Below, piece by piece: positions 2,067 through 58,926 of a DNA stretch of 64,000 nt; the stretch's first letter is position 1, and each line of letters opens with the position of its first letter. The DNA comes from a virus. A model generated the notes under the pieces. The model was not told the origin of the DNA and searched no databases. It saw nothing but the letters and a program-made list of their open reading frames with translations. The position numbers and the translations under genes are program-made. Location of the stretch: the IMG/VR virus record IMGVR_UViG_3300032770_000005, positions 88,858 through 152,857 of that record. One strand, given 5' to 3'.

Positions 2067-2623
2067 CCGGGCGACGAGGCGACCCGTCGTACACGCCGCC
2101 GACCGACGAGGAGCGACGCCTCGGCTACTACCTCGACTGCGTCAGCTGCGGCCGCCCGTGGGCGCTGCGCAGCTGCGTGCCGCACTTGCATCGCTGCCGC
2201 TCCTGCGCTCGCTCGTGGTGGCGCGACTACCGCCAGGCGGCGCGCCAAGGGCTGCCGCGGCCGAGCCTGCTAGGGCAGATCGCGCCGCATCCCTTCGCCT
2301 CGAAGGCGCTGAACCGCACGGTCGATCTGAACGCTCCGGGGCTCCTCGACCTGGTCGAGCAGGACCCGAAGTTCGCGAAGGAGCTGGACGCGTACATCGC
2401 CAGCCTGCGGCACGCCGACAGCAGCAAGCCGCCGCTGCGCGGCGCGGCCCTGAGCCTATCGGGACGGCCGCGTCGCCGCGCCGTGCGCGTGCCGCTCGAT
2501 GAAGACCCTACGCCCGAGCCGCCCATCTCCCGAGCGGCAGCCAAGGAGGTCGAGCGCCTGGTCGACGAGGTGCTCGTCGGCGACGTGATCGATGCCGGAG
2601 CGGTGCCGCGTCGGCGCGCGTGA
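2063..2623 (+). CDS. Zn-ribbon hypothetical protein
   Basis: CVSC...CRSC; ATGA coupling to upstream gene. Confidence 0.55.
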   Translation: MTGRRGDPSYTPPTDEERRLGYYLDCVSCGRPWALRSCVPHLHRCRSCARSWWRDYRQAARQGLPRPSLLGQIAPHPFASKALNRTVDLNAPGLLDLVEQDPKFAKELDAYIASLRHADSSKPPLRGAALSLSGRPRRRAVRVPLDEDPTPEPPISRAAAKEVERLVDEVLVGDVIDAGAVPRRRA

Positions 2624-2848
2624 GAGGCCTGCGCGGGGGCATGGTGCTCGCGACGCGCTCGCGACGAACCACGAGAGCCGGCGACGCGCCCATCCCGAAG
2701 CCAGCGCGGGGGCTTCGTGCCTGCGACTCGTGACGGAAGTTTCTCGTGGCTGACCTGTTGCATTCTGTCGAAAGGCCAGCGCGGAGGCTCTCATGTCCGC
2801 GACATGCAGTTCCACGACTGAGCCAGCGCGAGGGCTTGTGCTCGCGAC
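2619..2848 (+). CRISPR. mini-array A: 4 degenerate copies of the 36-bp CRISPR-like repeat
   Basis: copies at ~2619-2654, 2692-2727, 2767-2803, ~2813-2848 matching GTCGCGAGGCCAGCGCGGGGGCCGTGTGCCTGCGAC; spacers ~37, 39, ~9 nt. Confidence 0.75.
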
Positions 2849-2921
2849 GGTGTCACGTTCACTGGCGCTTCTGCGACGCGATGCCCGCTAGCCGACGTCC
2901 GGCGCCCATGCGACGATCGCG

Positions 2922-3335
2922 GTGATGTTGTCCAACGGCAGCAGCTCCTCCTACGGGTCCAACGCGTACAACACCGCGTCCAACGCGCCGTACACGACTG
3001 GCACATGGTCCCGGTTCTACGACAACGGCGGCACGACCTGGTCTCGACAGCCGCCTCGCGTGGCCGACCGCAGGCTGAGCAAGGTCGGCGAGCGCATCCA
3101 CCAGCGCCTCACGGAGATGGCCCGCCAGCTCGACCTGACCATCGACGAAACCGCCGTGCTCATGGAGGCCGAGGTCGCACGTCAGCATCGCGCGCTCCAG
3201 CTCCGCACGCTCGGCGTCGAGTGCCAGAGCACGCAGGCCCGGGCGACCGCTCGCCGACACCAGCGCCCAGCCGCGCCCACGGCCCAGGCACAGGCCGCGC
3301 TCTCCGTCAGGCGGTTCGCGCAGAGGGTGCGCTGA
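2922..3335 (+). CDS. hypothetical protein
   Basis: ORF coupled (TGATG) to next gene. Confidence 0.5.
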   Translation: MMLSNGSSSSYGSNAYNTASNAPYTTGTWSRFYDNGGTTWSRQPPRVADRRLSKVGERIHQRLTEMARQLDLTIDETAVLMEAEVARQHRALQLRTLGVECQSTQARATARRHQRPAAPTAQAQAALSVRRFAQRVR

Positions 3336-4276
3336 TGCGCAAGAACCCGCGGCCGCCCCTCGCTCCCGACTTCGACGAGCTGGTGCGCATCTGGTTGCAG
3401 CGCCGCGACGACTTCAAGCTGTGCGCCGAGCTGTCGAACGTCGCGCCGCCACACTTGAGGATCTGGCCCGAGAAGCGCGGCTACGGATGCTTCGCAGAGG
3501 TCAGCCCGACACACAAGCGCGTCGTCATGTACCGGCGCGGCTTCCTCGACCGGCCCACCGACATCGCGGCGATGGCCTTGGTCGCCGAGACGGGGCTGCT
3601 GGACGACTACGAGATCTTCGAGACCGACGAGGTGACCAACGAGCTGGTGCCCGTAGGGCTCACGATGCGCTCGCTGCTCTCTGCGATCCACGAGGTGCAG
3701 GAAGAGAGCATCGTCCGACACGATCCTCGAAGCGATCTGCCCGACGAGCCGCGCACGTTCAAGTACCTCGCGCGGTACAGCCCGCAGGAGATGGAGTGGT
3801 ACCACGCGACGCTCGCCTCCCGCGTGCCTTCAATCTTGAAGCACGGCCTGTTGCCGTCCTCGCTCCAGGAAGGGCGGGTCGAAGGCTGGTCGCCTAGCTG
3901 GAACTTCGGCCTCCAGCCGGCCGTGTACCTCACGGCCTACGAGGACCGAGCCGCGAGGATTGCCGAGACGCTGGCGCTGCGCAACGCGGAGCCCGCGACC
4001 CTGCTGGTCGTCGACGGTGCGGGCCTGATCGACACCAAGCTCCTCACCTACGACGAAGATGCTCTACGCAACGAGTTCTCGTCGTACCCGTACTACGAGC
4101 ACTACGACCAAGCCTTCCCGCAGTGGGTCACGAGCGCCGAGCATCGCGGCACCGAGTCCATCGCCTACCTCGGCCGCATCGGGCCTTCCGCAATCCACCC
4201 GCTCGCCACCGTGCGCCTGGTCGAGCACGATGGCGAGGTCGATCTGGAGTGGGACGATGAGCAAGACCGAGACTGA
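3335..4276 (+). CDS. ADP-ribosyltransferase-fold protein (Tpt1/KptA-like)
   Basis: WYHAT..SILKHGLLP, AVYLT, LLVVD, YLGRIGPSAI follow the H-x-T ART pattern; starts MRKNP. Confidence 0.65.
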   Translation: MRKNPRPPLAPDFDELVRIWLQRRDDFKLCAELSNVAPPHLRIWPEKRGYGCFAEVSPTHKRVVMYRRGFLDRPTDIAAMALVAETGLLDDYEIFETDEVTNELVPVGLTMRSLLSAIHEVQEESIVRHDPRSDLPDEPRTFKYLARYSPQEMEWYHATLASRVPSILKHGLLPSSLQEGRVEGWSPSWNFGLQPAVYLTAYEDRAARIAETLALRNAEPATLLVVDGAGLIDTKLLTYDEDALRNEFSSYPYYEHYDQAFPQWVTSAEHRGTESIAYLGRIGPSAIHPLATVRLVEHDGEVDLEWDDEQDRD

Positions 4277-5597
4277 GGACGCGCAGCTGCAACTCGTGGG
4301 CGATGCCCTCCTCCGGTTCGCGGCGGAGTTCCCTGGTCGCGTCTTCACGAACGCGTACACATGGGTCTGGGGCGCCGGCAGATACGTCTCCATCCATGGC
4401 GCGCTCGTGGGCAGCGCACGCAAGGTCGCCGCCTACTTCGGTCACATGGCGACCATGAACGAGGAGCACGAGTTCGGCATGAGCGGCCAGGTGCTCGATC
4501 ACATCGCTCGCCGCGTGTTCGGCGCCGACGCCGACATCTTCCGGTACGAGCGCCGTGTGCACCTAGCAGAGTTCCTCCAGCGCCTGGCGAACCTGATGCC
4601 GGAGGAGGCGACGCTGACCTTCATCCCCGACGGCGGCTACCCGTGGCCCGTCGATCGGTACTGGAACGCACGGCTTGAGCGGTTCGTGCGGCCCAAGGAG
4701 CCCGCGGGGCTGATCCACGTGCCGTCGCGCGAAAACCCGACCAAGACCGAGCTGGGGCTCGATCCGTGCACGGTGTTCGAGGCAGATCGCGATACGCCGG
4801 TCTCTCCGTACGACCCGGTGATGGGCAGCCTTGGCGGCGATCCTCTCATGGCCGCGCACTCGATGGACCTCCACGAAGGGCCCACCATGGCCAACGCACC
4901 GAAGATTCGGCAATGCGGTGGTCTGCTGTTCCCGTCGCTCTCGGTCGGTCCGGTCCCGGCCTCGAACTTCGGCCACGCATGCCTCGTGGCTCGCCTCAGC
5001 CTGGTGCTCGACGGCCTCAAGCCCTACCGCAAGCGCGGGACTGAAGAGCAGGTCTGGATCTACCCGACCGACGTGTGGACTGGCACCGTGACGCAGTTCA
5101 TGACCTCGATGGCCAGCGACCTGTTCGACGAGCTGCACGGTCACGCCGACTACGTCTACGGGCATGGCCTGACGGTGCTGGGGATCCCGGCGGTCGAGTA
5201 CGGCGGTCCTTCCGGCGGTGCGGAGGCGTTCGACTCGACGAGCCAGCTCAAGCGGACCCTCAAGAAGCGCATGGTGCGATGGATGCGGGTCTGCAACGAG
5301 CGCGAGTTCGAGGAACTGGCGCACGAACTCGGCGGCACGGGGGCGTACTACGCCTACTGCGAGGCGAAGGGGCGAACGGTCGTCTCGCTGAGCGAGTTCC
5401 CGTACCTGATCGTACCGGACTGGATGCGCGACAAGGCGGAGCACTGGGCGCAAGCGGCGGGGTTCGAGGGGCAGATCGTAGCGCCGCAGTGGCCGTACAC
5501 GCTCGACAGGGGCGGCGGAAGCTGGGACATGTGGCAGTGGGCTCTGAAGGTGAGCGAGACCGTCGCCGGTCTACGCCCGGTCGTGGAGGTGCGCTGA
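4257..5597 (+). CDS. two-domain protein; C-terminal domain resembles a large-polyvalent-protein domain
   Basis: LMAAHS..GGLLFPSLSV..NFGHACLV..IYPTDVWT pattern recalled from MGE polyvalent proteins; apparent boundary at SRENP. Confidence 0.45.
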   Translation: MSKTETEDAQLQLVGDALLRFAAEFPGRVFTNAYTWVWGAGRYVSIHGALVGSARKVAAYFGHMATMNEEHEFGMSGQVLDHIARRVFGADADIFRYERRVHLAEFLQRLANLMPEEATLTFIPDGGYPWPVDRYWNARLERFVRPKEPAGLIHVPSRENPTKTELGLDPCTVFEADRDTPVSPYDPVMGSLGGDPLMAAHSMDLHEGPTMANAPKIRQCGGLLFPSLSVGPVPASNFGHACLVARLSLVLDGLKPYRKRGTEEQVWIYPTDVWTGTVTQFMTSMASDLFDELHGHADYVYGHGLTVLGIPAVEYGGPSGGAEAFDSTSQLKRTLKKRMVRWMRVCNEREFEELAHELGGTGAYYAYCEAKGRTVVSLSEFPYLIVPDWMRDKAEHWAQAAGFEGQIVAPQWPYTLDRGGGSWDMWQWALKVSETVAGLRPVVEVR

Positions 5598-7033
5598 TGT
5601 TGCTGCAAGACGCTACGTCGGAACGGGAGGTCGAGGAAGTGCTGGCCGGCGCGCGTGGCGACGAGGAAGCCGCCGAGCTGCGGACCGACATCGAGACCGA
5701 GCTGGACTACGCCATGCGGCGGTTCGACGAGCACTTCTACAAGTACGTCGAGCCATCTGAGCCGACGGAGCTGCGGGACTTCGTGCAAGACAACGATGGA
5801 TTCATCGACGAGCTAATCAGCGACAGCGCGCAGACCACGTACGACCTATCGATCGTCCCGCGTGAGGACGTGGTCACCGCGGTGCGCTGGGAGGTGACGT
5901 CGCGACGGTCCTCATACAAGCATAGGTTTGGGATCTTCGAGTTGGGCGAGCCGCGAGACGTCGACGCATCGGGCTTCAGCTACGACATGCCCACCGAAGC
6001 GAACGTCGTCTTTCCCGACAGGCTCCTGCCGACCAACTACGAGTTCGTGCCACGCGAGATGGCGACGGAGTTCTGGAAGGGCATTGCGCATGACCACGAC
6101 ATCGAGTGGTACGGCGACACGGACCGGTTGGGTGACAACCAGGGCTCGATGCCGGGCGAGCCGCTCCGTATCGGCGTCGCGGAAGATCGCTTCGAGGAGT
6201 GGTGCCGCGACCTGATCGCCGAGCACGCGAACAAGATCGCAGAGCAGCATCCGGACCAGCTCATCGAGATGTTCTGGACTCGGCTCCGTCAATCCGATGT
6301 CCGGATGGCAGCCGAGTTCAAGGCGATGCAGCCGCGGCGGGAGGACGTGCTCGACCTGGCCGTGCAGTGGATCAGCGGCAACCACGACGATGTCGCCGAG
6401 GAGATCGCGCAGTACCTCGACTCGGCCAAGGAGCGCGGGGAGGCAGAGAAAGCGGAGTACGAGCCCGTCGACTCGCTCCTGACCGGCGAGCCCATCGTGC
6501 TCAACGACGACGTGCTGCGGCAGCTGGGCGTCACGAGCGGCGTGTTCTGGGAGGAGCGCCCGTGGCACCTCGTGAGGCTCGAAGCGCGTGACCTAGGTCG
6601 CGAGGGCCGGCAGATGCGGCACTGCGTCGGCGACAAGGGCATGGGCTACATCCGTGCGCTCAACAACGGCGAGATCGAAGTCTGGTCTCTGCGCTCCCGC
6701 GACGACAAGCCGCGGTTCACGCTCCAGGTCGACGCGTCGTTCTTCGCGAAGGGCGCGACGCCAGAGACGCGCGGCAAGGCGATCCAACAGGTCAAGGGCA
6801 AGGCGAACCGGGTGCCGGGCTATGCCGACGCGTACGGCCGCTCGGGGAACGTGAAGTTCCCGGAGGAGATCGTCATCTGGAGCTGGATCTTCGAGCAGCT
6901 CATGGTCGATCCGCTCGTCGTCGAAGACTTCAAGGGCTACAAGGCGCTTCCCTCGCGTGCTACGCCGCTCGCGTCGAACATGACTGGCCAGCAGTGCGTG
7001 GGCTTCGATCTGCCGTACCGACCGCTGCGATGA
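5597..7033 (+). CDS. PcfJ-like domain protein
   Basis: LGREGRQMRHCVG..YI..VWSLR..PRFTLQV..IQQVKGKAN PcfJ signature. Confidence 0.7.
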   Translation: MLLQDATSEREVEEVLAGARGDEEAAELRTDIETELDYAMRRFDEHFYKYVEPSEPTELRDFVQDNDGFIDELISDSAQTTYDLSIVPREDVVTAVRWEVTSRRSSYKHRFGIFELGEPRDVDASGFSYDMPTEANVVFPDRLLPTNYEFVPREMATEFWKGIAHDHDIEWYGDTDRLGDNQGSMPGEPLRIGVAEDRFEEWCRDLIAEHANKIAEQHPDQLIEMFWTRLRQSDVRMAAEFKAMQPRREDVLDLAVQWISGNHDDVAEEIAQYLDSAKERGEAEKAEYEPVDSLLTGEPIVLNDDVLRQLGVTSGVFWEERPWHLVRLEARDLGREGRQMRHCVGDKGMGYIRALNNGEIEVWSLRSRDDKPRFTLQVDASFFAKGATPETRGKAIQQVKGKANRVPGYADAYGRSGNVKFPEEIVIWSWIFEQLMVDPLVVEDFKGYKALPSRATPLASNMTGQQCVGFDLPYRPLR

Positions 7034-7068
7034 CGGCCGTTGGCATGTGAGCAGTGCAGGTGCTATCG

Positions 7069-7375
7069 CAGCATGCGCCAGCGCGAGGGCCTGGTGCTCG
7101 CGACCAGGCCTGAAGAGCCCTGCGGTCACGAAGCCTGCGCAGGGGTCTCATGCCTGCGACGAGGAGTGCCATGCCATCCATCATCTGCGGGACCTGCTTC
7201 TGGTTGCAGGGCCAGCGCGGGGGTCTCATACCTGCAACGAGAGCATCGAACGATGGAACGCTCGGAGGCGTGAACGTCCGAGGCCGGCGCGAGGGCCTGG
7301 TGCCTGCGACCTGTTCTTCCGCTGGTGGAGAACCGCATCGTCGCGAGCACCAAGCCCCCGCGCCGGCCTTTCGAC
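7069..7375. CRISPR. mini-array B: 4 repeat copies in + orientation and 1 in - orientation at the convergence of two operons
   Basis: + copies 7069-7104, 7125-7160, 7203-7238, 7275-7310 (spacers 20, 42, 36 nt); inverted copy 7340-7375. Confidence 0.75.
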
Positions 7376-7396
7376 CGAAGTACCCGAGAGCACGGC

Positions 7397-8170
7397 TCAG
7401 CGCGTCATGACCTCTGCGGTCTTGGCCAACGCGCCGTCGATGTCGTCGAGCAGCTTCGCGAGGTGCTCTCGTTTCGACCGCAGGGCGCGTAGCTCCGCAT
7501 CAACCCGACCATCCGCCGCCAACAGCGCCAGGGCACGGCGCACGCTGTACGGTTCGTACATGAGCGTCGCGGGCTCGACGTCGAGCGCCAGCGCCAGCGC
7601 ATCGAACGCATCGGCCTTCCTGAGCCGCTCTTGGACCTCAGCCATCTTCACGCGTACTCGCGCTTCGATCTCCGCTTCTCGCCGACGCGCCTCCTCCTCA
7701 TCGATCTCCGCCTGCGGCCGCGGCTGGTGCGCTTGCTCCAGGGCGCGGCGCAAGAGGTTGATGACGATCTCCCGCGGCAGCGGCTCGGCCTTTCGTTTCG
7801 CCGCCTGCACCGTGACCTTCAGGCCGCGAGGGCCGAGCACCATGAGCCCCCAGCCATCGGGCAGCTCGTCGCGGCGCACGACCTCGTCGCTGCCGGCTAC
7901 GATCCACCAGCGCTCGCAGTAGATGGCCATCGCCTCGGCTTTAGCGGGGTCCGCCAGCTCGCGCAGCCAGTCGCTCCGGCTCGCCTTGATCTCGAACCCC
8001 TGCATCCCGTGCCCACGGCTCTTCCAGATGCCGAGCGCGACCGCGTCGCAGCTGCGCGTCGCGTAGAAGCTGGTCCGGTCACGCACCTCTTCCAGGAAGG
8101 CCCAGCTCGGCCACGAGTACTTCTTCCGTAGCGCGTCGACGATCGGCGAGTTGCTGATGTAGTACTTCAT
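7397..8170 (-). CDS. PD-(D/E)xK nuclease (MmcB-like) with coiled-coil tail
   Basis: EEV..CDAVA..GFEIKASRSDWLREL. Confidence 0.7.
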   Translation of the reverse strand: MKYYISNSPIVDALRKKYSWPSWAFLEEVRDRTSFYATRSCDAVALGIWKSRGHGMQGFEIKASRSDWLRELADPAKAEAMAIYCERWWIVAGSDEVVRRDELPDGWGLMVLGPRGLKVTVQAAKRKAEPLPREIVINLLRRALEQAHQPRPQAEIDEEEARRREAEIEARVRVKMAEVQERLRKADAFDALALALDVEPATLMYEPYSVRRALALLAADGRVDAELRALRSKREHLAKLLDDIDGALAKTAEVMTR

Positions 8171-8182
8171 GAGCCAGTCCGG

Positions 8183-8443
8183 CTAGTGCCCAACGGCAAG
8201 CAACCAGCCCCATCCGGCCACGTAGAGTCTCGTGCCCGAGTAGAGCACGACCTCGTACCACTCGTAGTCGAGGTGGCCTTGAGGATGTGGGCCACAATCC
8301 GCACGCTCGATGCGACCGAGCTGTCCCGCGTACGGACCGCAAGCAACACGCACCACATCGCCTGTCCGAAACGATGCCCCGGTATCCGCCGGTCCGAGCA
8401 GCTCTCCTGGATCGTACAGATCGAACATCGTCGTAGTGATCAT
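8183..8443 (-). CDS. small KOW/SH3-like protein
   Basis: FRTGDVVRVACGPYAGQLGRI. Confidence 0.5.
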   Translation of the reverse strand: MITTTMFDLYDPGELLGPADTGASFRTGDVVRVACGPYAGQLGRIERADCGPHPQGHLDYEWYEVVLYSGTRLYVAGWGWLLAVGH

Positions 8444-8447
8444 GCCG

Positions 8448-8780
8448 TCACCGCTCGCAGACTTGACGATCTAGAGCCGCACCTACAGCCGCTCGAAGCG
8501 CACGACATGCCTCTTCCAAGGCGCTGGTGTTGGCGTCGCGGTCGTCATCGCCGGTCGTAAACCAAGCCATGGCGGCTCGAACGACCGCGCGCTCCGCATC
8601 GGCCACGCTCAGCAACGGAATGTGCTCGACCCAGCTGACGTGATGAACACGGTAGAGCCTTCCCAGGGCAAGACCTCGCCACTCGATCTCGACCTCGTCT
8701 CCCCGCACGGCCACGACCGTGCCCGTGTAGGACTTCTGCCCCACGTCGCGAACGTCGTCACCGACCTTGAACTGTGTCAT
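8448..8780 (-). CDS. SH3-like hypothetical protein
   Basis: MTQFKVGDDVRD..GTVVAV. Confidence 0.5.
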   Translation of the reverse strand: MTQFKVGDDVRDVGQKSYTGTVVAVRGDEVEIEWRGLALGRLYRVHHVSWVEHIPLLSVADAERAVVRAAMAWFTTGDDDRDANTSALEEACRALRAAVGAALDRQVCER

Positions 8781-8793
8781 CTGCCGGCCCCTT

Positions 8794-9060
8794 CTACTTG
8801 GTGCCGCGCTGGATGGCGACGAGCGCAGCCGCCTTGATGCTCTTGAGCTGCTCGCGCTGCATGAGGCGCACGAGCGCGGCGTAGGTCGCGGCATCGACCT
8901 GCACGCCGATGGTCTTCACGGTACCGACGGCGGGCACCTGGCCCTTCGGCGTCGATGGCTGACGAGCGGGAGCGTGGGTCTCTTCCATGGGCGACTCCTT
9001 GAGCGCGGCACGCTCGGCTTGCAGTTGGGCGAGGTGACGTTGGATCTGTTCGAGCAGCAT
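8794..9060 (-). CDS. possible ribbon-helix-helix DNA-binding protein
   Basis: C-terminal KTIGVQVDAATYAALVRL. Confidence 0.45.
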   Translation of the reverse strand: MLLEQIQRHLAQLQAERAALKESPMEETHAPARQPSTPKGQVPAVGTVKTIGVQVDAATYAALVRLMQREQLKSIKAAALVAIQRGTK

Positions 9061-9062
9061 GG

Positions 9063-9353
9063 TCAGACAGGCGTCCGGCGAGTCACAGCAGCTTCACCAG
9101 CCTCTGCCGGAAGCTCCGTGGCGAGTGTCACCACCTGCCAGTCTTCCGCCAGATAGTCTTCGGGCTTGAAGGCGCTGCGACACGTCACAGAGACCCATGC
9201 CCACTTGGTCCATGGGCTCCGCCCCTGCGAGCGAAAGAAGAACCCGCGCTCGTCGTAGCCGAACGCGTCGAGGCGCTTGAACGTGTTGTCCATCCCCGAA
9301 CGGTTCACCAGCTTGCCCGCGAGCATCTCTCGGACTGCTTCGACAAAGGTCAT
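9063..9353 (-). CDS. Tad2/DUF2829-like protein
   Basis: MTFVEAVREMLAGKLVNR...EDYLAEDWQVV. Confidence 0.55.
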   Translation of the reverse strand: MTFVEAVREMLAGKLVNRSGMDNTFKRLDAFGYDERGFFFRSQGRSPWTKWAWVSVTCRSAFKPEDYLAEDWQVVTLATELPAEAGEAAVTRRTPV

Positions 9354-10192
9354 GGACCTGCCCCCATGCGCACGATGCCTGGCGCAGGCGCTCGGAAATC
9401 GCCGATGGGCACCTCGCAGTGCAGAGGCAGCGCGAGCTGGCGCGACAAGTGCGCGCTCTCCCGCCCCGCATCGAGACGCTGCCACAGCTTTTGACCGAAG
9501 ACCTCGCTCACCGCGGTCTCACCGCGCAGATAGATGTCGTCGAACGAATCGAAGTGCTGGAGCAGCTTGACCGCGGTGTGGTGGCCGATGCCTGGCACGC
9601 CCGGAATGCCGTCGCTGCTGTCGCCGACCAGCGCAAGGTAGTCGACGACGTGATGAGCCGATACGCCCAGGCGCTCACGGCAGACCCGGTTGTTGACCAG
9701 GCGCTTCATGGCCGGGTCATAGACGCCGCGCACGCCGTGCACGCCGATCCACTGCCAGAGGTCCTGGTCGATGCTCACGATGAGCTTCGGCACGTCGCGC
9801 AGGTCGTGGTGGCACACGTAGGCGCCGATGATGTCGTCCGCCTCGTACCCGTCGATGCGCACGACGGACACGTCGAGGTCCGCCAGCGTCTCGTAGAACC
9901 GCGGCGCCTGACGCGCGAAGACCGGCAGGTGAGCCTTGCGCCCCGCCTTGTAGCCGTCCCAGACCTCGCACCGCTTCAGCGGCGCGAACGAGTCGCCGAC
10001 GACCACCATGCGCGTGGTGCGGAGGTCATCCATCGTCCGCGCCAGCATCACCCGAGCGTGCTCGATGAAGCGCGTGTTGTCAGGATCGACCGTCGGCGCT
10101 CGCGCGCCGTAGCAGGCGTACATCGCACGATGCAAGAACGAAGCGACGTCGACCAGATGCAGTTCGTCGGGCACGTGTAGCTCGTCGGACAC
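9350..10192 (-). CDS. 5'-3' exonuclease / flap endonuclease (PolA N-terminal-like)
   Basis: LVD..FLHRA, YKAGR, GYEADDIIG, SIDQDLWQ, LVGDSSDGIPGVPGIG. Confidence 0.9.
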   Translation of the reverse strand: MSDELHVPDELHLVDVASFLHRAMYACYGARAPTVDPDNTRFIEHARVMLARTMDDLRTTRMVVVGDSFAPLKRCEVWDGYKAGRKAHLPVFARQAPRFYETLADLDVSVVRIDGYEADDIIGAYVCHHDLRDVPKLIVSIDQDLWQWIGVHGVRGVYDPAMKRLVNNRVCRERLGVSAHHVVDYLALVGDSSDGIPGVPGIGHHTAVKLLQHFDSFDDIYLRGETAVSEVFGQKLWQRLDAGRESAHLSRQLALPLHCEVPIGDFRAPAPGIVRMGAGP

Positions 10193-10200
10193 GGAGTCTC

Positions 10201-11070
10201 CTACTGCCCGACCGGAGCCGGCGGAAAGAGCGCCGGCCAGCGTGCACGTGCGACCTCCTGCCACTTCCGTGCGAGGCGCTGGAACTCCCCATCCGCCGCC
10301 GGCGAGCACCGCTCCGCGAACAGCTTGTTGAGCGCGATGGGATTGGTCGTCCACAGGAACGACGTGCACGCCTGCATCGGCAGAAGGCCCGCCGCGGCCT
10401 CGTAGATGCGCTTGCGCTCGATGCCCACGGGAGATCGACCATGGGCCTCGAAGAACGCCGTCGTCCTGCCCGTGATGAAGCGGCGGTACGCGTCGTAGAA
10501 GGCCTGACAGTGCTTCTCGTACGGGTCGAGCAGGTCGTGCTCGACGTAGTAGGGCGGCACCGCGAAGTGGCCCGGATGGAACGTGTAGCGGGTGCTCTCC
10601 TGACTCGGCGAGCCCTCCTCGGTGCGGTCCGCGCCCACGTAGTGGCGGATCAGCTCGTGACTGACCCGCCGGCTCACGCCCGCGATGAAGAAGGTCATCT
10701 TCGCGTGGTAGGCCGTGCTCGCATGAGGCAGGGACCCCGCCTCGGCGGGAAAGAGCATGTGCCGCACGTACTCGACGTTCGACTTGCGGCCAGCCCGCAG
10801 ACCGTAGCTGTGGTAACAGCTGCGGCCCGCCAGCTCGACGAGCAGTTCGTTGTCGGTCAGCGCCCGGGCGGCTTCCTTCCCTCCGTGCGGGAACAGCGCC
10901 ATCGCGCGGTCTTCCGCGTCGGCGGGCAGGTCCGTAGGCACGCACTCGGGCCGGTAGTCGCGAACCCAGTCGAGCAGCTGGTTCATGCCCTCGGTGTCGA
11001 GGGCCATGGACGCCACGACGAGCACCGTCGGCTCGGTGATGAGCCGTACGGCGCCCTCCTTCTCCGCCAC
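10201..11070 (-). CDS. thyX: FAD-dependent thymidylate synthase
   Basis: ELAGRSCY, GVSRRVSHELIRH, SQESTRY motifs. Confidence 0.9.
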   Translation of the reverse strand: MAEKEGAVRLITEPTVLVVASMALDTEGMNQLLDWVRDYRPECVPTDLPADAEDRAMALFPHGGKEAARALTDNELLVELAGRSCYHSYGLRAGRKSNVEYVRHMLFPAEAGSLPHASTAYHAKMTFFIAGVSRRVSHELIRHYVGADRTEEGSPSQESTRYTFHPGHFAVPPYYVEHDLLDPYEKHCQAFYDAYRRFITGRTTAFFEAHGRSPVGIERKRIYEAAAGLLPMQACTSFLWTTNPIALNKLFAERCSPAADGEFQRLARKWQEVARARWPALFPPAPVGQ

Positions 11071-11074
11071 GGGC

Positions 11075-11473
11075 TCAGCCCTTCGGATAGTACTTGGTGG
11101 CCCGCTTGACGCCCTTCTTGCCGATCGTCTTGCTGCGGAGCAGCTTCGCGATCGGCAACGTCAGGTCCTTCGTCGGCATCGCGAGGCCCGTGCCGATGGC
11201 CTCGATGCTGGAGCCCGGATGCGCCTTCACGAACGCCGCGACCTTGCTGACCGTCGCCGCGATGACCTTCGGGTCCCGCTTCTGCCCGAACGACGACGAC
11301 TGAGCGCGGGCCTGGACGTGGGCCTTGCCGTTCGTGCCGTTCGCGTGCTTCGGTGCGCTCGCGCTCACGCCGCCGAGGCCCTGGGCCACTGCGTTGAGCA
11401 CCTGATCGCGGATGAGCGCCTCCAGTTCGTTCACGAACTCGTCGAGCTTCTGCTTGATGTTCATCGACTCCAT
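11075..11473 (-). CDS. winged-helix DNA-binding protein (myxobacterial type)
   Basis: KRDP..FVKAHPG..IEAIG..L..TKDLTLPIAKLL..KKGVKRATKYY; AAGGAG RBS. Confidence 0.7.
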   Translation of the reverse strand: MESMNIKQKLDEFVNELEALIRDQVLNAVAQGLGGVSASAPKHANGTNGKAHVQARAQSSSFGQKRDPKVIAATVSKVAAFVKAHPGSSIEAIGTGLAMPTKDLTLPIAKLLRSKTIGKKGVKRATKYYPKG

Positions 11474-11513
11474 GATGTGTCTCTCCTTGACGCGCCCCGG
11501 CGCGGAAGGTGTG

Positions 11514-11542
11514 ACTGTATGGCTGCTTGACTCAGAACGCAA
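11514..11542 (-). promoter_or_regulatory. sigma70-like promoter
   Basis: TTGCGT-17 nt-TACAGT upstream of the 11473 start. Confidence 0.45.
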
Positions 11543-11632
11543 GGCTCAAGAGGCGAAAAACACGCCAACAGGTCGACGACGATGTCACGGTCTTTCAAGG
11601 CGCCGCGCAGCCTCTCCCGCCATCGGGCACTC

Positions 11633-11668
11633 GTCGCAGGCACCAAGCCCACGCGCTGGCCTTGGCGA
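11633..11668 (-). repeat. solo copy of the CRISPR-like repeat
   Basis: gtcgcaggcaccaagcccacgcgctggccttggcga, intergenic, same orientation as the main array. Confidence 0.65.
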
Positions 11669-11734
11669 ACAACACGACCCCTGATCTTCGGTCACCTCGG
11701 CGCGGTCTTCCAAGGCGCCGCACGGCCTCTTCTC

Positions 11735-12253
11735 CTATGCGCGGTAGCGGCGTGTGCCGCCTTGGAGCAGCTGCTGCAACGCAGGATCGTCCGAACGGGC
11801 GATGATCTTGCGCTCACGCGCATCCCGGTTGCGCTTCATGCGACCGCAGATACCGGCCCGGAGATCGCCCACCGCCTCACGCGCACGGACCGTCGCCTCT
11901 GACGTGATCACGACCTCGTCGGCCGGCGGTCGGTTCGCCATCTTCGTGAAGTCGTCGACATCGACCAGCGTGAGGATGCACGGCGAGAACGCATACGAGA
12001 CCACCCAGGTGCGCGCATGGTTCCTCAGTGGCAACGCATTCGCGTCGCCGTAGACGGAGCCCTGGCCCTCGTGCGGCCCAAGCGCCTCGGCGAGCCAGGC
12101 CATCTCGGCGACGACCTGCTCTTCGCCACACGCCCGAAGGCTCACGAGCACGATGGTGCCGTGCTCGAAGAGCCACCACCGTACATTGGCCGCGCGACTC
12201 GGTGCGGCGCTGAAGACCTCCTGCGCGATCGAGATCGCCTTGCTGCTGTCCAT
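11735..12253 (-). CDS. hypothetical protein
   Basis: GAGGAG RBS, in operon. Confidence 0.65.
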   Translation of the reverse strand: MDSSKAISIAQEVFSAAPSRAANVRWWLFEHGTIVLVSLRACGEEQVVAEMAWLAEALGPHEGQGSVYGDANALPLRNHARTWVVSYAFSPCILTLVDVDDFTKMANRPPADEVVITSEATVRAREAVGDLRAGICGRMKRNRDARERKIIARSDDPALQQLLQGGTRRYRA

Positions 12254-12280
12254 GTGTTGTCTCTCCTCGAACTCGGAAGA

Positions 12281-12814
12281 CTAGCGATCGATCAACCAGT
12301 ACCGTTCGCGTAGGCGCGGCGGCGTCTGACCTCGGGGCAGCTCGCGCGCTTCGTCCCATGTCCAGCCGCGAGCCACGCGCGCATGGATGCCCTGCCGCGT
12401 CAGCGTCGTCTTCACGACGGCTTGCTGCGGCGCGAGGGCGCGGCTAGCGCGGTCGTTCTTGACGCAGGTCACGCAGCCCTGAAGACCCGTGCGGCGCCGT
12501 CGTCGCAGGTAGCGCATCGACGCGGTGATCTCGGCACCGCACTTCATGCAGCGCGCGACCACGATGCGGCTACGCTGAGCGAAGTCGTCGGTGTCGCGTA
12601 AGATCTGCCAGCCGTTGTGCTGCTCGCCTGCGTAGCGCCGCCGAGCCCTCGGGCCTGATGCCGCGCAGCTGGCGCATCGCTTCGTCATGTGCGAGCGCAG
12701 GTTGCCGCGCACGACGAGCGTCTCACGGCCGCAGCTGCACCGGCAGAGCGCTCGGGCGCCCGAGGCGTACGGCTGTAACACCGTCCACTGGCCGTACCGC
12801 TCGCCCGCGAGCAC
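12281..12814 (-). CDS. Cys-rich protein resembling N-terminal repeats of phage HNH/AP2 endonucleases
   Basis: GERYGQWTVL..CRCSCG..GNLRS..CASC, partially repeated; no HNH catalytic motif seen. Confidence 0.55.
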   Translation of the reverse strand: MLAGERYGQWTVLQPYASGARALCRCSCGRETLVVRGNLRSHMTKRCASCAASGPRARRRYAGEQHNGWQILRDTDDFAQRSRIVVARCMKCGAEITASMRYLRRRRRTGLQGCVTCVKNDRASRALAPQQAVVKTTLTRQGIHARVARGWTWDEARELPRGQTPPRLRERYWLIDR

Positions 12815-12815
12815 G

Positions 12816-13106
12816 TCAGACCGCGCCGTCGACGCCGTAGCCGTACGGCGTCTTGATCCAACCGTCGTCGCCGTCGAGAACGGCGTACACGACGACCCGC
12901 CGCTCGCTGTCGCGCTCCCAGGCCTGCGCGTGACCATCTTGGCGCCGCACGACGACACGGGGCACGCGCAGCTTGTTCAGTGCGTACTGGGCCGCGGCTT
13001 CCTCGGTCGCAGCGGTCACGAGCAGCACGCTACCGCGCGAGCCCCACGGCGTGGCCTGCCAGGTCGCATGACCCACGCGACTGACCTTCACTCCTCGACG
13101 AGCCAT
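12816..13106 (-). CDS. hypothetical protein
   Basis: GAGGGAG RBS, in operon. Confidence 0.55.
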   Translation of the reverse strand: MARRGVKVSRVGHATWQATPWGSRGSVLLVTAATEEAAAQYALNKLRVPRVVVRRQDGHAQAWERDSERRVVVYAVLDGDDGWIKTPYGYGVDGAV

Positions 13107-13124
13107 ACGCGTCTCCCTCTTTCC

Positions 13125-13712
13125 TCACCACTTCGAGAACGACTCGAAGGGCTGATCGCGGTGCACGTACAGCGGATGCCGAGGGGCGCCACTGTGCACG
13201 CGCCCAAGGCAGAGCACGGGCACGCTGCCGGCTACCAAGCGACGGTGCACGTCGCGCTCGTGCTCGTGGCCGAAGCTCGGCCCGCTCGCGCCCCACGCGC
13301 AGACGATCGCGTGCACAGACGGGTCGTGCAGCACGAGGGTGAACTGCGCGTCGTTCTTGGGGCCGACGACGCGTGAGATCCAGTCGATTCGATCGAGCTG
13401 GCTCCGCTCGACGGTGTGGTGCGGCTCGGGCGGCGGCGAGCGCAGGGCGGTCGGCGATGGCGAGCGCAGGGCGTAGAGGTTCAGGACGATCAGCCCGCCG
13501 CAGCCCTCGCGCTTGGAGAAGCCGATGCAGCGACGGATCGTAGGATCGTCGGTCTCCGCGTCCGCCGTGCTCGGGTTCAGCATCACCCACACGAGCACCT
13601 TCGCGGCAGGCGCCCACATACGCCAGAGGCGATAGCGGTACTCGCCGTCGATGATGGCGCCGGAGAGCGGCGGCGGCACGGTGGGCGCTGGCTCGGTGAC
13701 ATCGAGGCCCAT
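13125..13712 (-). CDS. DUF1643 family protein
   Basis: YRYRLWRMW, VMLNPSTAD..DDPTIRRC, VLNLYALRS, CAWG, PRHPLY. Confidence 0.9.
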   Translation of the reverse strand: MGLDVTEPAPTVPPPLSGAIIDGEYRYRLWRMWAPAAKVLVWVMLNPSTADAETDDPTIRRCIGFSKREGCGGLIVLNLYALRSPSPTALRSPPPEPHHTVERSQLDRIDWISRVVGPKNDAQFTLVLHDPSVHAIVCAWGASGPSFGHEHERDVHRRLVAGSVPVLCLGRVHSGAPRHPLYVHRDQPFESFSKW

Positions 13713-13714
13713 CG

Positions 13715-14149
13715 CTATGCCGCCGCTTCCTGCGTGCCGACCACGCCGTCGACCATCACCAGCGCGCTCGGAGGCGCGAGACGGTCTGCCTGCCGCGCCA
13801 TGAGACGGCGCCAGGCCCAGAGCGGCCACTGCCACGGCACGCGGGGCAAGGGTTCGGACTGAAGTCGCAGCGAGACGTGCAGGTCGGTGCCCGTCGGCAC
13901 CATCATGAACGAGTCGAAGCGCATGAAGCCCATGGTCCGCTCGCCGGACGGGAATACGGCATCGCCCGGAGCCGTGGCGAGCACGATCTCCTCGCCGATC
14001 ATCACCGTGACCTCGATGCGGTCGAACACGCGGTAGCCCTCGCACGACATCCGGACCGCGATCAGCGCCATCGCCTTGTCGGTCAACAGCGAGAACGAAT
14101 GCTCGCGCTCTTCGTCGAAGCTGACGGGGCCGAAGTGCAGCGACGCCAT
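13715..14149 (-). CDS. hypothetical protein
   Basis: ORF in operon; start uncertain (14149 or 14176). Confidence 0.5.
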   Translation of the reverse strand: MASLHFGPVSFDEEREHSFSLLTDKAMALIAVRMSCEGYRVFDRIEVTVMIGEEIVLATAPGDAVFPSGERTMGFMRFDSFMMVPTGTDLHVSLRLQSEPLPRVPWQWPLWAWRRLMARQADRLAPPSALVMVDGVVGTQEAAA

Positions 14150-14172
14150 CCTGCCGAACGTGCGCTGAGCGC

Positions 14173-14727
14173 TCACGGCGTGACCCGCAGCGCTGCTGCC
14201 TGCCGAGCCAGCTTCTCGGCCTCCGCGACCATGTACTCGATGGTCCGGTACTCCTCCGGTCGGCGGCTCGCGCGAAGCCTACCGTAGCCAGGCCGCGTGA
14301 GGTCGAACGGAGATAGATCGAAGGCGTGACATGCATCGAAGCCATGCCACCACACATGCTCCGGCTCGCCCGGTCGCGCGACGTGGCAGATGTGGCCCGC
14401 GCACTCCGCGGAGTACGTGATGCCGCCGTGGACCTTCGGGTGGCCGCCCTCGACCCATTCGGCGTCCACCAGGCTGACGCCGTGCCACGGATGACCGGGC
14501 TCCACGCCGACGTAGCCGCACAGGTGCCAGCTCTCGGCGTGCCTCACGATCAAGCACGGGAAGCCGTGGGCGCGCCACTCGACGCGGTCCGGCTCGTGCG
14601 TCCACGGGCCCGCCGGCATCACGGCCCGCACGGCTGCGGGATCGCGCGATGCCACGGCGCCCTCCGGCAGACGCGGGGACAGGTTCTCGTGGCCAAGGTT
14701 CTGATCGACGGGTAGGCTCTGGGTCAT
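14173..14727 (-). CDS. conserved phage protein (CGYV..VHGGITY..GFD family)
   Basis: HLCGYVGV..HPWHG..VHGGITY..WWHGFDACH; start may be 14619. Confidence 0.7.
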   Translation of the reverse strand: MTQSLPVDQNLGHENLSPRLPEGAVASRDPAAVRAVMPAGPWTHEPDRVEWRAHGFPCLIVRHAESWHLCGYVGVEPGHPWHGVSLVDAEWVEGGHPKVHGGITYSAECAGHICHVARPGEPEHVWWHGFDACHAFDLSPFDLTRPGYGRLRASRRPEEYRTIEYMVAEAEKLARQAAALRVTP

Positions 14728-14865
14728 GACGACTGTCAACGTGGGCTGGAAGTACGCAACGTTCGCGCTCGGTGGTCTCGTGGTGGCGCAGTACTTCTGG
14801 TGGGCGAAGCGATGCCCGCAGGTCCTGCCGTGGAACCAGTAGGCTCTCGCGTGTGTTGATACAAC

Positions 14866-14885
14866 GTGTCCGACACTCACGTCAA
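14866..14885 (-). promoter_or_regulatory. putative -35 box (TTGACG) with adjacent palindromic operator GTGTCGGACAC
   Basis: same arrangement recurs at 19833-19851. Confidence 0.5.
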
Positions 14886-14903
14886 GGGCCACGTCACGCG
14901 TTT

Positions 14904-15165
14904 TTGCGCGAGCCAGCGCGAGGGCTTGGTGCTCGCGACAACGATCAGGTCGCACAAAAGCCCTCGCCGGGGCTTCGTGCCGGCGACGTCGAGGAGGTTG
15001 GCGCGTTGATCGCGAAGGGCCGCTCAGTGCGAGGCCAGCGCGGGGGCCGTTGTGCCTGCGACGATTCCCTCGGCGCGCTCTCGGCGTCAAGCCAACGCAG
15101 GGGCCTGGTGCCTGCGACGCGCGGCGTCTCCGCGAGGGCCTGTGCGAGGGCTTTGTGCTCGCGAC
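14904..15165 (+). CRISPR. mini-array D: 5 degenerate repeat copies
   Basis: copies ~14904-14939, 14952-14987, 15026-15062, 15083-15118, 15130-15165; irregular spacers ~11-38 nt. Confidence 0.7.
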
Positions 15166-15224
15166 CGAGGATGCTCGCGATCGAAAACAAGCCTCTTAGC
15201 CGGCCAACGAAGGGAGCCTGAACC

Positions 15225-15509
15225 ATGCTGATCGTCCACTATGGAGCCCCCAGCCCGGACACCGAATACCCGCGCATCCCGCCCATTCTGACCGACCCGC
15301 GGCCAAACACCGTGACGCCGGGACCAGCGACGCCGGAGCCCGTGGCGCCGAAGCCGGACCAGATGCTCGCGGCGCTGACGAAGCGGCGCGTGCGGGTCGC
15401 GGTGAGGATCGACGAGGCCGGCCGCGTGCACGTGCGGGTCGACGGTCCATTCGGTCTGGCCGCCGACGTCTCGGGCGAGAAGTCGATCACGATCGAGACC
15501 GAGGTCTGA
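15225..15509 (+). CDS. hypothetical protein between repeat clusters
   Basis: AGGGAG RBS, 94 aa ORF. Confidence 0.6.
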   Translation: MLIVHYGAPSPDTEYPRIPPILTDPRPNTVTPGPATPEPVAPKPDQMLAALTKRRVRVAVRIDEAGRVHVRVDGPFGLAADVSGEKSITIETEV

Positions 15510-15695
15510 GCCGTGGCCCGCGCAGGGGCCTCGTGCCTGCGACCATACCGAGCACCGGCACTCGTGCAGCCGCAGGGTCGGTTGCGAAGCCTGCGCAGGG
15601 GCCAGGTGCCTGCGACAAGTTGTACGACACGTACTTCCCGCGCGAAGTCGGGACGTGTTGTTGCGAAGCCGGCGCGAGGGCTTCGTGCTCGCGAC
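15508..15695 (+). CRISPR. mini-array E: 3 repeat copies
   Basis: 15508-15543, 15581-15616, 15660-15695; spacers 37 and 43 nt. Confidence 0.75.
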
Positions 15696-15765
15696 CGCGG
15701 CTGCCGGGGTAGGCGCATGGCGTCGGCCAGCTGCCAGCCGTGACTGGCTCTGTTAGGCTGCGCTC

Positions 15766-16506
15766 ATGACGTACGCGTGTGGAGCGGTGCTCGATCCGGT
15801 CTGCGACCCCTGGACCGGCGAGATGTACCCGAACCCCTGCGAGGCCGAGGCCGCCGGTGTCTTCGACTGGCAGCGCTCGTGCGACGGCGGCTTCGACGTC
15901 GACGTCTGGGGCCCCGGAACTATCGACTGGGGCTGGTCAGGCGCACCGGGGCTCGTCCGACGGCAGCGGCGGCGGCGGCGGCACGGCGGAGGACGCCCTG
16001 GCCGCCCAGGCGGCAAGCAGGCGACGCTGACGCCCGGTACGCTGACGCCCGGTACGCCGATCGGCGGACCGAAGACCGGCTCAGGCCGCGGCTTGCAGCT
16101 CTCGGCCGGGCCTGCGTCTGCTCCGCGGTCTGCTGGCCCACTGGCGCCGCTGTTCGAGGGCTCCGACCTCACGCCGAGCGCAGCGCTCGCGCCCGCGCCG
16201 ATGCGGCTCTCTGCGACGCGTGGTGCCGCGCCCATGGCGCCCGGTTCCAAGCCGATGAGCTTCAGCGGTCTACGCCGCAGCGCCGGCACTCTGCGCGGAC
16301 CGCTGTCGGCGGGGGCGCGGTACGCCAGCGCCAGTCGCAGCCTCCGGCCGGCCTCGCTCGTCAGTCGTGGCGGGCGCGTCGCCGCCCGCGGCATGCGCGG
16401 GCTCGGCCAGAACACGACCACGACGCTCGCGCTCGGTGGTGCCGGCATCGGAACGTTCGCGGCGCTGTGGCTCGCCGCCATCTACCTCTTCGGCCGGAAC
16501 CGGTGA
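15766..16506 (+). CDS. membrane protein with N-terminal Kazal-like motif, GLGQ motif and C-terminal TM
   Basis: CGAVLDPVCDPWTGEMYPNPCEA; RGLGQN; TM then GRNR. Confidence 0.6.
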   Translation: MTYACGAVLDPVCDPWTGEMYPNPCEAEAAGVFDWQRSCDGGFDVDVWGPGTIDWGWSGAPGLVRRQRRRRRHGGGRPGRPGGKQATLTPGTLTPGTPIGGPKTGSGRGLQLSAGPASAPRSAGPLAPLFEGSDLTPSAALAPAPMRLSATRGAAPMAPGSKPMSFSGLRRSAGTLRGPLSAGARYASASRSLRPASLVSRGGRVAARGMRGLGQNTTTTLALGGAGIGTFAALWLAAIYLFGRNR

Positions 16507-16528
16507 GCCAGGCCAGGAGGCGCTCGTC

Positions 16529-16933
16529 ATGACCATCAACAGGCTCGCGGTCCGACCGGCGGCAGCGTCCCTCACGAAAGAGCTGCTGGAGCAGCTCGAC
16601 GACGGCCTGCTGATCGCGTGGCGCATCTCGAACAGCCGGCTCGACTGGTCGATCATGAACCGGCCTCCGTCGATCCAGGACCACGCGCTCGCGACGGCGC
16701 TCGTGTTCGCGATGCCGAACTACAAGCTCGTCATCGACAAGAAGATCATGCGGCCCGAGAAGATCCTGCGCAGCGATGGCCGCGAGGTCACGTACAACGA
16801 GTACATCGACGTCGACTTCACGGATGGACGGATCCGCTCGTCGCGCAAGCGGGACATGACTCAGAAAGTGCTGGCTGCCATCGTCCACCAGCTCATGCAG
16901 AGCACAGCGCCGATGCCTGGCGTTCGCGGCTGA
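16529..16933 (+). CDS. hypothetical protein
   Basis: AGGAG RBS; converges on the array. Confidence 0.65.
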   Translation: MTINRLAVRPAAASLTKELLEQLDDGLLIAWRISNSRLDWSIMNRPPSIQDHALATALVFAMPNYKLVIDKKIMRPEKILRSDGREVTYNEYIDVDFTDGRIRSSRKRDMTQKVLAAIVHQLMQSTAPMPGVRG

Positions 16934-16966
16934 TTCGGCCGAGCTGCGTGCCGGCATCGACGTGAA

Positions 16967-18352
16967 GTCGCGGGCATTCGGCCCCCACGCTGGCCTGACG
17001 GCGACGGCGATGACCCACTGCTGCGCCATGTCGCAGGCACGATGCCCCCACGCTGGCCCTGCAACGCGCACAACGCGCAGTACAAGCCGATGGCGCTCGG
17101 CGTGGCTCGGCGTGTCGCGAGCACCAAGCCCCCGCGCTGGCCTCGCCTGCATGACGATCTGCACCGAGTGCTTCTGCGTCCATCCGTCGCGGGCACTCGG
17201 CCCCCGCGCTGGCCTCGTAACAAGGGCTCTAGCTGACCGGTCAGCAGGACGACGCGCAGTCGCAGGCACGATGCCCCCGCGCTGGCTCTTCGAGACGCCG
17301 TCTCGGCCTTCCGGTCGCAGGCACCAGGCCCCTGCGCAGGCCTCGCAACAACTACACGCGAACCGAGCGCCTTCGCATATGCGTCGCGAGCACAAGCCCT
17401 CGCGCTGGCTCAGTCGTGGAACTGCATGTCGCGGACACCAGAGCCTCCGCGCAGGCTCGATCGTGGTCGCTCGGCTTGAGCGCGAGCCGGGCCTTCTCGC
17501 TCACTTCGCGAGCACCAAGCCCCCGCGCTGGCTTCGCGACTACGTGGATGCGGCCGCTTCCCCTTGGTCCAGCGCCAGGTGCAGGCACGAGGCCCCTGCG
17601 CAGGCCTCGCGACGTCCTCGTCATGAACACCAATCTCGCGGACACGCAGTCGCAGGCACACGGCCCCCGCGCTGGCCTCGCGACGCATATGATCGGCGCT
17701 GGTACGCGTGCGGCGACCTCCAGTCGCAGGCACTCGGCCCCCGCGCTGGCCTCGCGACGCTCCGGCGCGCCGCGTGAGCATCACGACGTCGCGCTTCATG
17801 TCGCGAGCACTCGGCCCCCGCGCTGGCCTCGCGACCGGCAGACCCGGGCGATGGTAGTGCTGCACGATGACGTCGCAGGCACACGGCCCCCGCGCTGGCC
17901 CCGCGACCAATGAACGGTGCCTTGTGGGCGGCCACGGGTCCCAGAGTCGCAGGCACACGGCCCCCGCGCTGGCCTCGCGACCCGCACAGCAGCGCGTTGA
18001 ACGCGCCGCCCGCGAGAAAGTCGCAGGCACACGGCCCCCGCGCTGGCCTCGCGACGGCACTGCTCCGGCGCATGGGCTTCTGCGAGGAGCGCGGTCGCAG
18101 GCACACGGCCCCCGCGCTGGCCTCGCGACCGCGTCGCTGGCCACCCGACACGCATGTATGTGCCTCCCGGTCGCAGGCACACGGCCCCCGCGCTGGCCTC
18201 GCGACGCACGTCGTGCACGGTCGGCGTTGTCGTAGTTCTCCTGTCGCAGGCACCAGGCCCCCGCGCCGGCCTCGCGACTAGAGGATCTGCGTGCGAGGAA
18301 CGTTGTCGAAGAAGGAGTCGCAGGCACACGGCCCCCGCGCTGGCCTCGCGAC
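16967..18352 (-). CRISPR. CRISPR-like array, 20 repeats / 19 spacers, no cas genes in window
   Basis: 36-bp repeat (+ strand GTCGCAGGCACACGGCCCCCGCGCTGGCCTCGCGAC) at 17649, 17723, 17800, 17872, 17946, 18020, 18094, 18170, 18243, 18317 with unique 36-41 nt spacers; more degenerate copies at 16967-17613, suggesting a leader on the right and - strand transcription. Confidence 0.9.
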
Positions 18353-18371
18353 GGACTGCTCGCATCGGCCG

Positions 18372-34546: not shown

Positions 34547-34657
34547 TTGGACGCAACTCGCCTGCTCGACCCCTGAGAGCAGGCGAGGCGCAAGGCCCCA
34601 GGTCTTCGGAGAGAACGCTACACGCGAGAGATCATCGGCGCAAGAAGAATCGCACGC

Positions 34658-37441: not shown

Positions 37442-37443
37442 GG

Positions 37444-58080: not shown

Positions 58081-58109
58081 TTGCATTCGCCGCGCGGCGG
58101 TTGTATGCT
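58081..58109 (+). promoter_or_regulatory. sigma70-like promoter for the rightward operon
   Basis: TTGCAT-17 nt-TATGCT. Confidence 0.6.
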
Positions 58110-58892: not shown

Positions 58893-58926
58893 GGGCGGCG
58901 GCAGGGTGGCTCGCCCCGCCCGGCGC

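Follow-up and report, generated by a model that had tools for sequence, protein, structure and literature searches.

A virus whose DNA holds one CRISPR-like repeat in a long array, and again in several small groups between its other genes, raises the question of what these scattered copies are for and which protein, if any, reads them. This is the case in the last 64 kb of IMG/VR virus record IMGVR_UViG_3300032770_000005, a single 152,857-bp contig with a completeness rating of 100% (positions 88,858 to 152,857; this whole stretch of 64,000 nucleotides is called the window below). The copies probably belong to a multi-locus type V-M CRISPR system, the guides of which would be transcribed within viral operons and released by the effector Cas12m.

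The copies were located by repeat finding, mismatch search and an nhmmer profile, and the gene predictions come from a model of codon bias that was trained on this contig. The original prediction had counted the same 36-bp repeat 20 times in the main array and 18 times elsewhere, essentially always between genes. Both statements are borne out: 38 copies of the 36-nt repeat are found in the window, at every site named earlier, and the gene calls leave all 12 clusters of the contig intergenic. At up to three mismatches the consensus has 10 matches in the real window and no occurrence in 100 shuffles of it. The whole contig holds 88 copies in these 12 clusters, which occupy ~5.8 kb, or about 4% of the genome. 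The repeat features of the window are the following:

2619-2848, + strand: mini-array of 4 degenerate repeats in a + operon, beginning at the stop of gene 2063-2623, with the next gene from 2922.
7069-7310, + strand: mini-array of 4 degenerate repeats at a + operon tail, 35 nt past the stop of the PcfJ-like gene 5597-7033.
7340-7375, - strand: lone repeat, 21 nt past the stop of gene 7397-8170, at the tail of the - operon that faces the previous one.
11633-11668, - strand: solitary repeat between the - genes 11735-12253 (upstream) and 11075-11473 (downstream).
14904-15165, + strand: mini-array of 5 degenerate repeats (one weak) where genes diverge, 59 nt before the start of the + gene 15225-15509.
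15508-15695, + strand: mini-array of 3 repeats, with the + genes 15225-15509 and 15766-16506 on its two sides.
16967-18352, - strand: main type V-M array of 20 repeats, including a divergent copy at ~17428-17457 (repeat finding, nhmmer).
17383-17470, - strand: repeat-spacer-repeat unit, duplicated in the same RNA sense at 2767-2848 (+).
17982-18019, - strand: spacer with a candidate protospacer.
18354-18541, - strand: remnant of the cas12m-B 3' end with its 19-nt gap, likely the shared leader of the main array (blastn).

The original prediction had also found no cas gene. This stands for intact genes within the window and fails for the contig, where a scan for Cas12-type genes finds two; they were missed because the edge of the window excludes them:

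Contig 57349-59214, 29.6 kb before the window: Cas12m-B, 621 aa, with a TNB domain and a match in the PDB.
Contig 8790-10550, 78 kb before the window: Cas12m-A, with a TNB domain and a match in the PDB.

When the ten longest proteins of the contig are compared with Pfam, these two carry a Cas12f1-like TNB domain; a third TNB protein was not found on the contig. Among solved structures, a Cas12m chain gives E values of 1e-67 and 9e-67 with the two proteins, and Cas12m2 gives about 1e-24 to 1e-27. They are 46% identical to each other, and the RuvC D-E-D residues and a CxxC..CxxC finger are conserved across 14 homologues. By homology, the contig encodes two Cas12m (type V-M) proteins. Fourteen copies of the window's repeat begin 19 nt after the cas12m-B stop codon, on the same strand, and neither Cas1 nor Cas2 was found in this record rated as complete.

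The main array bears a trace of the same gene. Window positions 18354-18541 align with contig 59044-59233 at 82.6% identity over 190 nt (blastn, E 1.7e-47), and the copied segment consists of the last ~170 nt of cas12m-B and its 19-nt gap to the first repeat, so that the main array and the cas12m-B array have the leader in common and no spacer. An open reading frame (ORF) of 132 aa at 18372-18770 (-), which has a good ribosome-binding site, stops 19 nt short of the main array; at the protein level only the last 11 residues are common to the remnant and Cas12m-B, and for this reason the ORF looks like a chimera on a cas12m 3' remnant. Cas12m-A has a 33-nt repeat family of its own, with three copies (contig 8790-11250). 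The first copy starts 3 nt after the cas12m-A stop codon, copies 1 and 2 flank a complete 179-aa gene with a Shine-Dalgarno sequence (ATG at ~10607, end at 11111), and a 54-nt spacer separates copies 2 and 3.

The repeat itself has the shape expected of a guide scaffold for such an enzyme. When 85 copies are aligned in one sense, columns 14-19 and 30-35 form a helix in which 98.4% of 447 cells are paired, with 35 double-sided (compensatory) changes; none of 500 shuffles reaches this value, and slid controls give 25-63%. Two of the helix pairs occur as G-C, A-U and G-U, the stem variants being GCGAG/CUCGC, GCAGG/CCUGC and GCGGG/CCUGC, and two related viruses, G001 and G003, add further pair types (GCAGA/UCUGC and GCAGC/GCUGC, respectively). 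About 40 helix cells are G-U pairs that would be A-C mismatches on the opposite strand, and therefore the RNA strand is the reverse complement of the sequence first written down. The original prediction was thus right about the repeat and had its sense reversed, the main array being read on the - strand. A pairing of the two ends of the repeat was also considered and rejected, as it shows no covariation and is paired in 66%, the level of the shuffles; the internal helix is preferred.

Each copy begins with ~8 variable nucleotides, followed by a conserved core of ~28 nt that contains the 6-bp helix and terminates in GAC. G9, C10, C11 and G21 never vary, the terminal GAC is conserved to at least 90%, and the unpaired positions are as conserved as the stem, which points to a sequence-specific partner. 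A second short helix, of columns 8-11 with 20-23, is compatible with a pseudoknot, but its pairs are invariant. The CRISPR RNA (crRNA) of Cas12m2 has a 36-nt scaffold with the first 7 nt disordered, a 6-bp helix to position -3, a G.A pair and a terminal AC (PMC10442227). The repeat fits this scaffold as described, with the 5' strand of the helix offset by 1 nt (the loop is one base longer).

The position of the clusters suggests how they would be expressed. They occupy 7 of the 161 co-directional, 4 of the 10 convergent and 1 of the 10 divergent gene junctions. That the orientation of the repeat follows the operon strand, as originally proposed, holds for all seven sites in the window and for 11 of the 12 clusters across the contig, which are co-oriented with their flanking genes. 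At the convergent junction 7033-7397, four copies follow the + operon and one follows the - operon, and each group therefore forms the end of the operon to which it belongs. About half of all clusters begin no more than ~35 nt from a co-oriented stop codon, and at five internal sites 59-76 nt separate the last repeat from the next start codon. Promoter-like or terminator-like signals at the clusters do not exceed those of shuffles, and T-tract terminators were not found there.

The following mechanism would account for these observations. When read in the sense of the genes beside it, each repeat would form a Cas12m crRNA scaffold. The clusters have no evident transcription signals of their own, and because they lie 0-35 nt past a co-oriented stop codon or between the genes of an operon, they are probably transcribed as part of viral mRNAs. 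Cas12m-B would then bind each scaffold and cut upstream of it, as other Cas12m enzymes do, freeing the guides and severing the polycistronic RNA at the same sites. Other Cas12m proteins process their precursor crRNA themselves, without a trans-activating crRNA (tracrRNA), and bind DNA without cleaving it (PMC11013384). The cutting of mRNA would be a direct consequence, because this processing takes place within the repeat (PMC11013384). The guides are expected to lead Cas12m to DNA with a T-rich protospacer-adjacent motif (PAM) on the 5' side, where it would stop transcription by binding without cleavage, as the characterised Cas12m enzymes do; rival mobile elements or host genes are the likely targets, with one candidate so far. 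The ten small clusters may represent older units that were spread by duplication and kept foldable by selection. Two proposals of the original prediction are retained in this scheme: the production of guides from different transcription units, with repeats embedded in sense in several of them, is kept as the best reading, and the cutting of polycistrons by a Cas RNase follows from it as a corollary.

Both clean arrays, the main one and that of cas12m-B, have identical repeats at the RNA-sense 5' end that decay towards the 3' end, i.e., the usual leader-to-trailer polarity. In the main array, little or nothing differs among the 10 leader-end repeats (from 18352 to 17649), and decay sets in towards 16967; the mismatches to the first repeat are, in order, 0, 3, 0, 0, 0, 0, 1, 3, 1, 0, 6, 7, 20, 5, 8, 4, 8, 7 and 7. 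The clean-array period is 74 nt, and the spacers are unique, mostly 36-41 nt long and of near-genomic GC content. Cas12m2 uses a 17-bp heteroduplex (PMC10442227), and therefore most spacers are long enough (62 of the 68 measure at least 18 nt). If only the ~28-nt core is counted as repeat, the small-cluster periods of 47-59 nt leave 19-31 nt. The repeat-spacer-repeat unit present at both 2767-2848 and 17383-17470 shows that units have moved between loci.

The spacer at 17982-18019, in the main array, agrees in 34 of its 38 nucleotides with an ORF of a bacterial chromosome (L031:976-2364, -). The agreement stops at the borders of the spacer and, on the side expected for a type V PAM, is preceded by the T-rich 5' flank GCTTT. 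It is the best match among 401 genomes of one phylum, with an E of 7e-7 per genome, 30x better than the next. It is a candidate protospacer only, significant only empirically against the high chance background of GC-rich sequence. The matched gene has an N-terminal His_Phos_1 domain only and no PADLOC or NCBIfam match; the virus has no homologue of it, and the spacers of two other arrays yielded nothing more in the same genome. No spacer target was found in 50,697 GenBank phage records, nor among the related loci compared. Self-targets on the contig are limited to the duplicated unit and one near-match, in which the spacer at contig 37313-37346 (cluster 36858-37898) agrees at 31 of 34 positions with window 15392-15425. 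This lies in a 94-aa gene, 15225-15509, that itself stands between two repeat clusters. The match has no T-rich 5' flank and is in part repeat-like, and the spacer could be a guide against a relative's allele or the remnant of a duplication. Another spacer agrees exactly with 25 nt of a PilZ-like gene; this match leaves out the PAM-proximal end and was judged to reflect chance or codon bias.

Cas12m-B has more than 100 homologues at 40-50% identity, several of them on contigs of 80-220 kb. A search of IMG/VR by peptide patterns of Cas12m-B returned no close relatives, and an alignment query of the same database returned 59 loci with Cas12m relatives (L035-L093), many on contigs of 100-200 kb. 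Most of the 59 have an array just after cas12m and about eight have a second cluster within 10 kb, in a scan that gives position only, strand being uninformative with a seed word taken from the + strand. An array directly downstream of the effector is also found in L014, L016 and G001. The first of these, a 166-kb scaffold, is syntenic around cas12m-B and has a degenerate sister-repeat array after cas12m; its next 9 kb are packed with glycosyltransferase genes and lack synteny with the window. In L016, cas12m is followed by at least 29 degenerate repeats at irregular intervals. The layout of scattered repeats recurs in two other Cas12m-type viruses. In G001 (94 kb), cas12m lies between clusters, and three solitary copies are found farther off, at 7-59 kb, each in the sense of the genes around it. 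In G003 (17.5 kb), a single operon contains five lone copies, separated by 341-2678 nt.

Several points weigh against the production of guides from all of these sites. Transcription, processing and Cas12m binding in this virus are all inferred, the processing and the silencing of DNA from the biochemistry of other Cas12m proteins (PMC11013384). The small clusters are irregular, with 30-157 nt from start to start and one gap of 289 nt, which is odd for guide production, and six spacers are shorter than 18 nt. The scheme does not account for the acquisition of uniform 37-38-nt spacers without adaptation genes. A candidate target was obtained for just one of ~70 spacers, and no better match was found in 107 genomes from the class of the bacterium concerned or in IMG/VR. 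Where copies have spread by duplication, covariation can overstate selection. Finally, the three copies of one cluster, at contig 79946-80108, run antisense to the genes on either side. Any read-through from the + operon would yield a transcript with an anti-repeat RNA complementary to every crRNA scaffold.

The main rival to the multi-locus guide system, which we consider rather unlikely, holds that the small clusters and solitary copies act mainly in cis. Cas12m bound at sense hairpins would punctuate operons and set the ends or stability of mRNAs, or the hairpins would titrate or autoregulate Cas12m, and the sequence between copies would be largely irrelevant. The two readings overlap, because the release of guides already implies cutting, and the difference is which effect was selected. 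A cis role would suit the solitary copies between genes (window 7340 and 11633, contig 85539) and the single copies of G003, the enrichment of clusters at operon tails, the 59-76 nt to the next start codon at five internal sites, and the irregular spacing, in which some spacers measure 10-16 nt. It would also suit the repeats of Cas12m-A, which flank a whole gene and begin at the stop codon of the effector. However, most spacers could accommodate the heteroduplex of Cas12m2, and some repeat-spacer units of the small clusters occur in the main array as well. Moreover, the would-be guides downstream of the repeats show no partial complementarity to the promoters or genes of the virus beyond the reversed control (4 versus 1, three of them trivial). 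A regulator of the CreR/CreA type was rejected on this same search, which used a 16-nt seed and at most one mismatch, three of the 4 off-site matches being artefacts of repeats or duplication.

The original prediction had proposed, among other readings, mini-arrays and solitary repeats without cas genes that borrow the Cas proteins of the host or act as decoys for them, as RNA anti-CRISPRs (Racrs) do. Such viral elements are documented (PMC10651486, PMC11656645), and the window has no intact cas gene. This account is nevertheless very improbable, as the virus encodes the cognate Cas12m-B beside an array of the same repeat, a 3'-end remnant of cas12m adjoins the main array, and the copies retain every feature of a working scaffold. 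No cognate host system came to light either: across 185,579 prokaryote species genomes (one genome each) the repeat core gave four isolated weak single matches and never an array, and the host has not been identified. JGI metagenomes also gave four isolated weak matches, and the core was not found in IMG/VR.

Repeats that work independently of Cas, whether as a mobile hairpin like miniature inverted-repeat transposable elements (MITEs) or repetitive extragenic palindromes (REPs), as rho-independent terminators or as RNA-stabilising hairpins that merely resemble a CRISPR repeat, would explain GC-rich hairpins dispersed over many sites, including operon tails and convergent junctions, but hardly the 74-nt periodic arrays with unique spacers, the identity with the repeat of the cas12m-adjacent array, the conservation of unpaired positions, the lack of T-tracts at the clusters, or the several clusters inside operons, where a terminator would silence downstream genes. 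A MITE or REP origin was rejected on the same periodicity, unique spacers, cas-adjacent repeat and conserved unpaired bases; target-site duplications were not searched for. No Rfam family matches the first 20 kb of the window.

The surroundings of the clusters are in part recognizable. Window 9350-14176 (-) contains genes of nucleotide metabolism and replication, among them a 5'-3' exonuclease (9350-10192), the thymidylate synthase ThyX (10201-11070) and a DUF1643 gene (13125-13712); DUF1643 also occurs near cas12m in the relatives L016 and L017. A long - strand block of ~40 genes extends over 24500-57700. Eleven of its proteins were compared with PHROGs and none matched a capsid, portal or terminase family; the matches obtained were a weak one to tail fibres, for 32087-34657, and one family of unknown function. 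Flanking and structural genes are mostly without matches in Pfam and PHROGs. A 24-nt tandem repeat of 14.5 copies, at 63652-64000, lies inside an ORF and runs into the contig end. The sole sequencing run listed for the record is a wetland metagenome (DNA), probably the one from which it was assembled, and in the contigs of that run the arrays are fragmented, with repeat-driven joints.

Compact CRISPR systems of viruses are familiar from Cas12j/CasPhi and Cas-lambda of huge phages, in which a single small self-processing effector is combined with arrays, without Cas1/Cas2, and is thought to target rivals. These effectors belong to another Cas12 family and cut DNA, and we know of no description of genome-wide arrays inside operons in them.

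The closest known counterparts of the system described here are the type V-M Cas12m proteins MmCas12m, Cas12m2, GoCas12m and MsCas12m (PMC10442227, PMC11013384; Wu et al. 2022 as cited in PMC11656645), which share with it the effector family, the 36-nt scaffold geometry, the array directly downstream of the effector, the lack of adaptation genes and the carriage by mobile elements. V-M systems are found on plasmids and some prophages (PMC11656645). Here, by contrast, a 153-kb virus carries two orthogonal paralogues, its 88 repeats are distributed over 12 loci instead of one array, most of them sense-oriented inside operons, and the repeats have diverged with compensatory changes. Variants with a D-E-D RuvC triad, as in this virus, did not cut DNA (PMC11013384), and the protein of this virus may behave likewise. 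The V-M system of the myxophage MV-1 (bioRxiv 10.64898/2026.09.14.751636) likewise has a Cas12m of ~610 aa with D-E-D, an adjacent array and no cas1/2/4. Its report found no tracrRNA and no spacer targets, describes one array with eight spacers, and does not mention dispersed arrays or solitary repeats. Its claim to the "first" phage Cas12m understates the frequency of such proteins, as 59 IMG/VR viral loci encode relatives.

Short arrays and single repeats in viral non-coding DNA are also known as viral mini-arrays and as solitary repeat units or Racrs (PMC10651486; PMC11656645). Those copy the repeat of the host and depend on its Cas proteins or poison them, whereas the repeat described here is that of the virus's own effector. 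CreA/CreR and crlRNAs (PMC10120712; bioRxiv 10.1101/2024.10.29.618823) are similar in being degenerate repeat units outside the main array that, in their case, are still bound by the Cas effector. Their target is a promoter near cas or toxin genes, to which they are partly complementary; no complementarity of this kind was seen here, where the copies are also dispersed genome-wide and in far greater number. A virus with genome-wide, operon-embedded arrays of its own Cas12m has not been described in the literature searched.

What is new, then, is a genome of which ~4% consists of a dozen arrays and lone repeats at operon tails and joints, with compensatory change in the repeats and no adaptation genes. 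A more far-reaching reading, offered tentatively, is that Cas12m serves as a genome-wide RNA code. Sense scaffolds would be present in every operon class, mRNAs would be cut at fixed points, sets of guides would be timed as early, middle and late, and the silencing of DNA, in the host or in rivals, would be coupled to viral transcription. If so, cutting would also set the ends and fate of viral messages, and a gene lying between repeats, like the one of the Cas12m-A family, would have an mRNA with a Cas12m handle. If the multi-locus reading is true, the virus runs a large, hard-wired, binding-only CRISPR silencing programme. Its natural variant scaffolds form a ready set showing which bases Cas12m tolerates and, if guides are indeed cut from viral mRNAs, they would be a natural counterpart of the engineered crRNAs that are hidden in messenger RNA.

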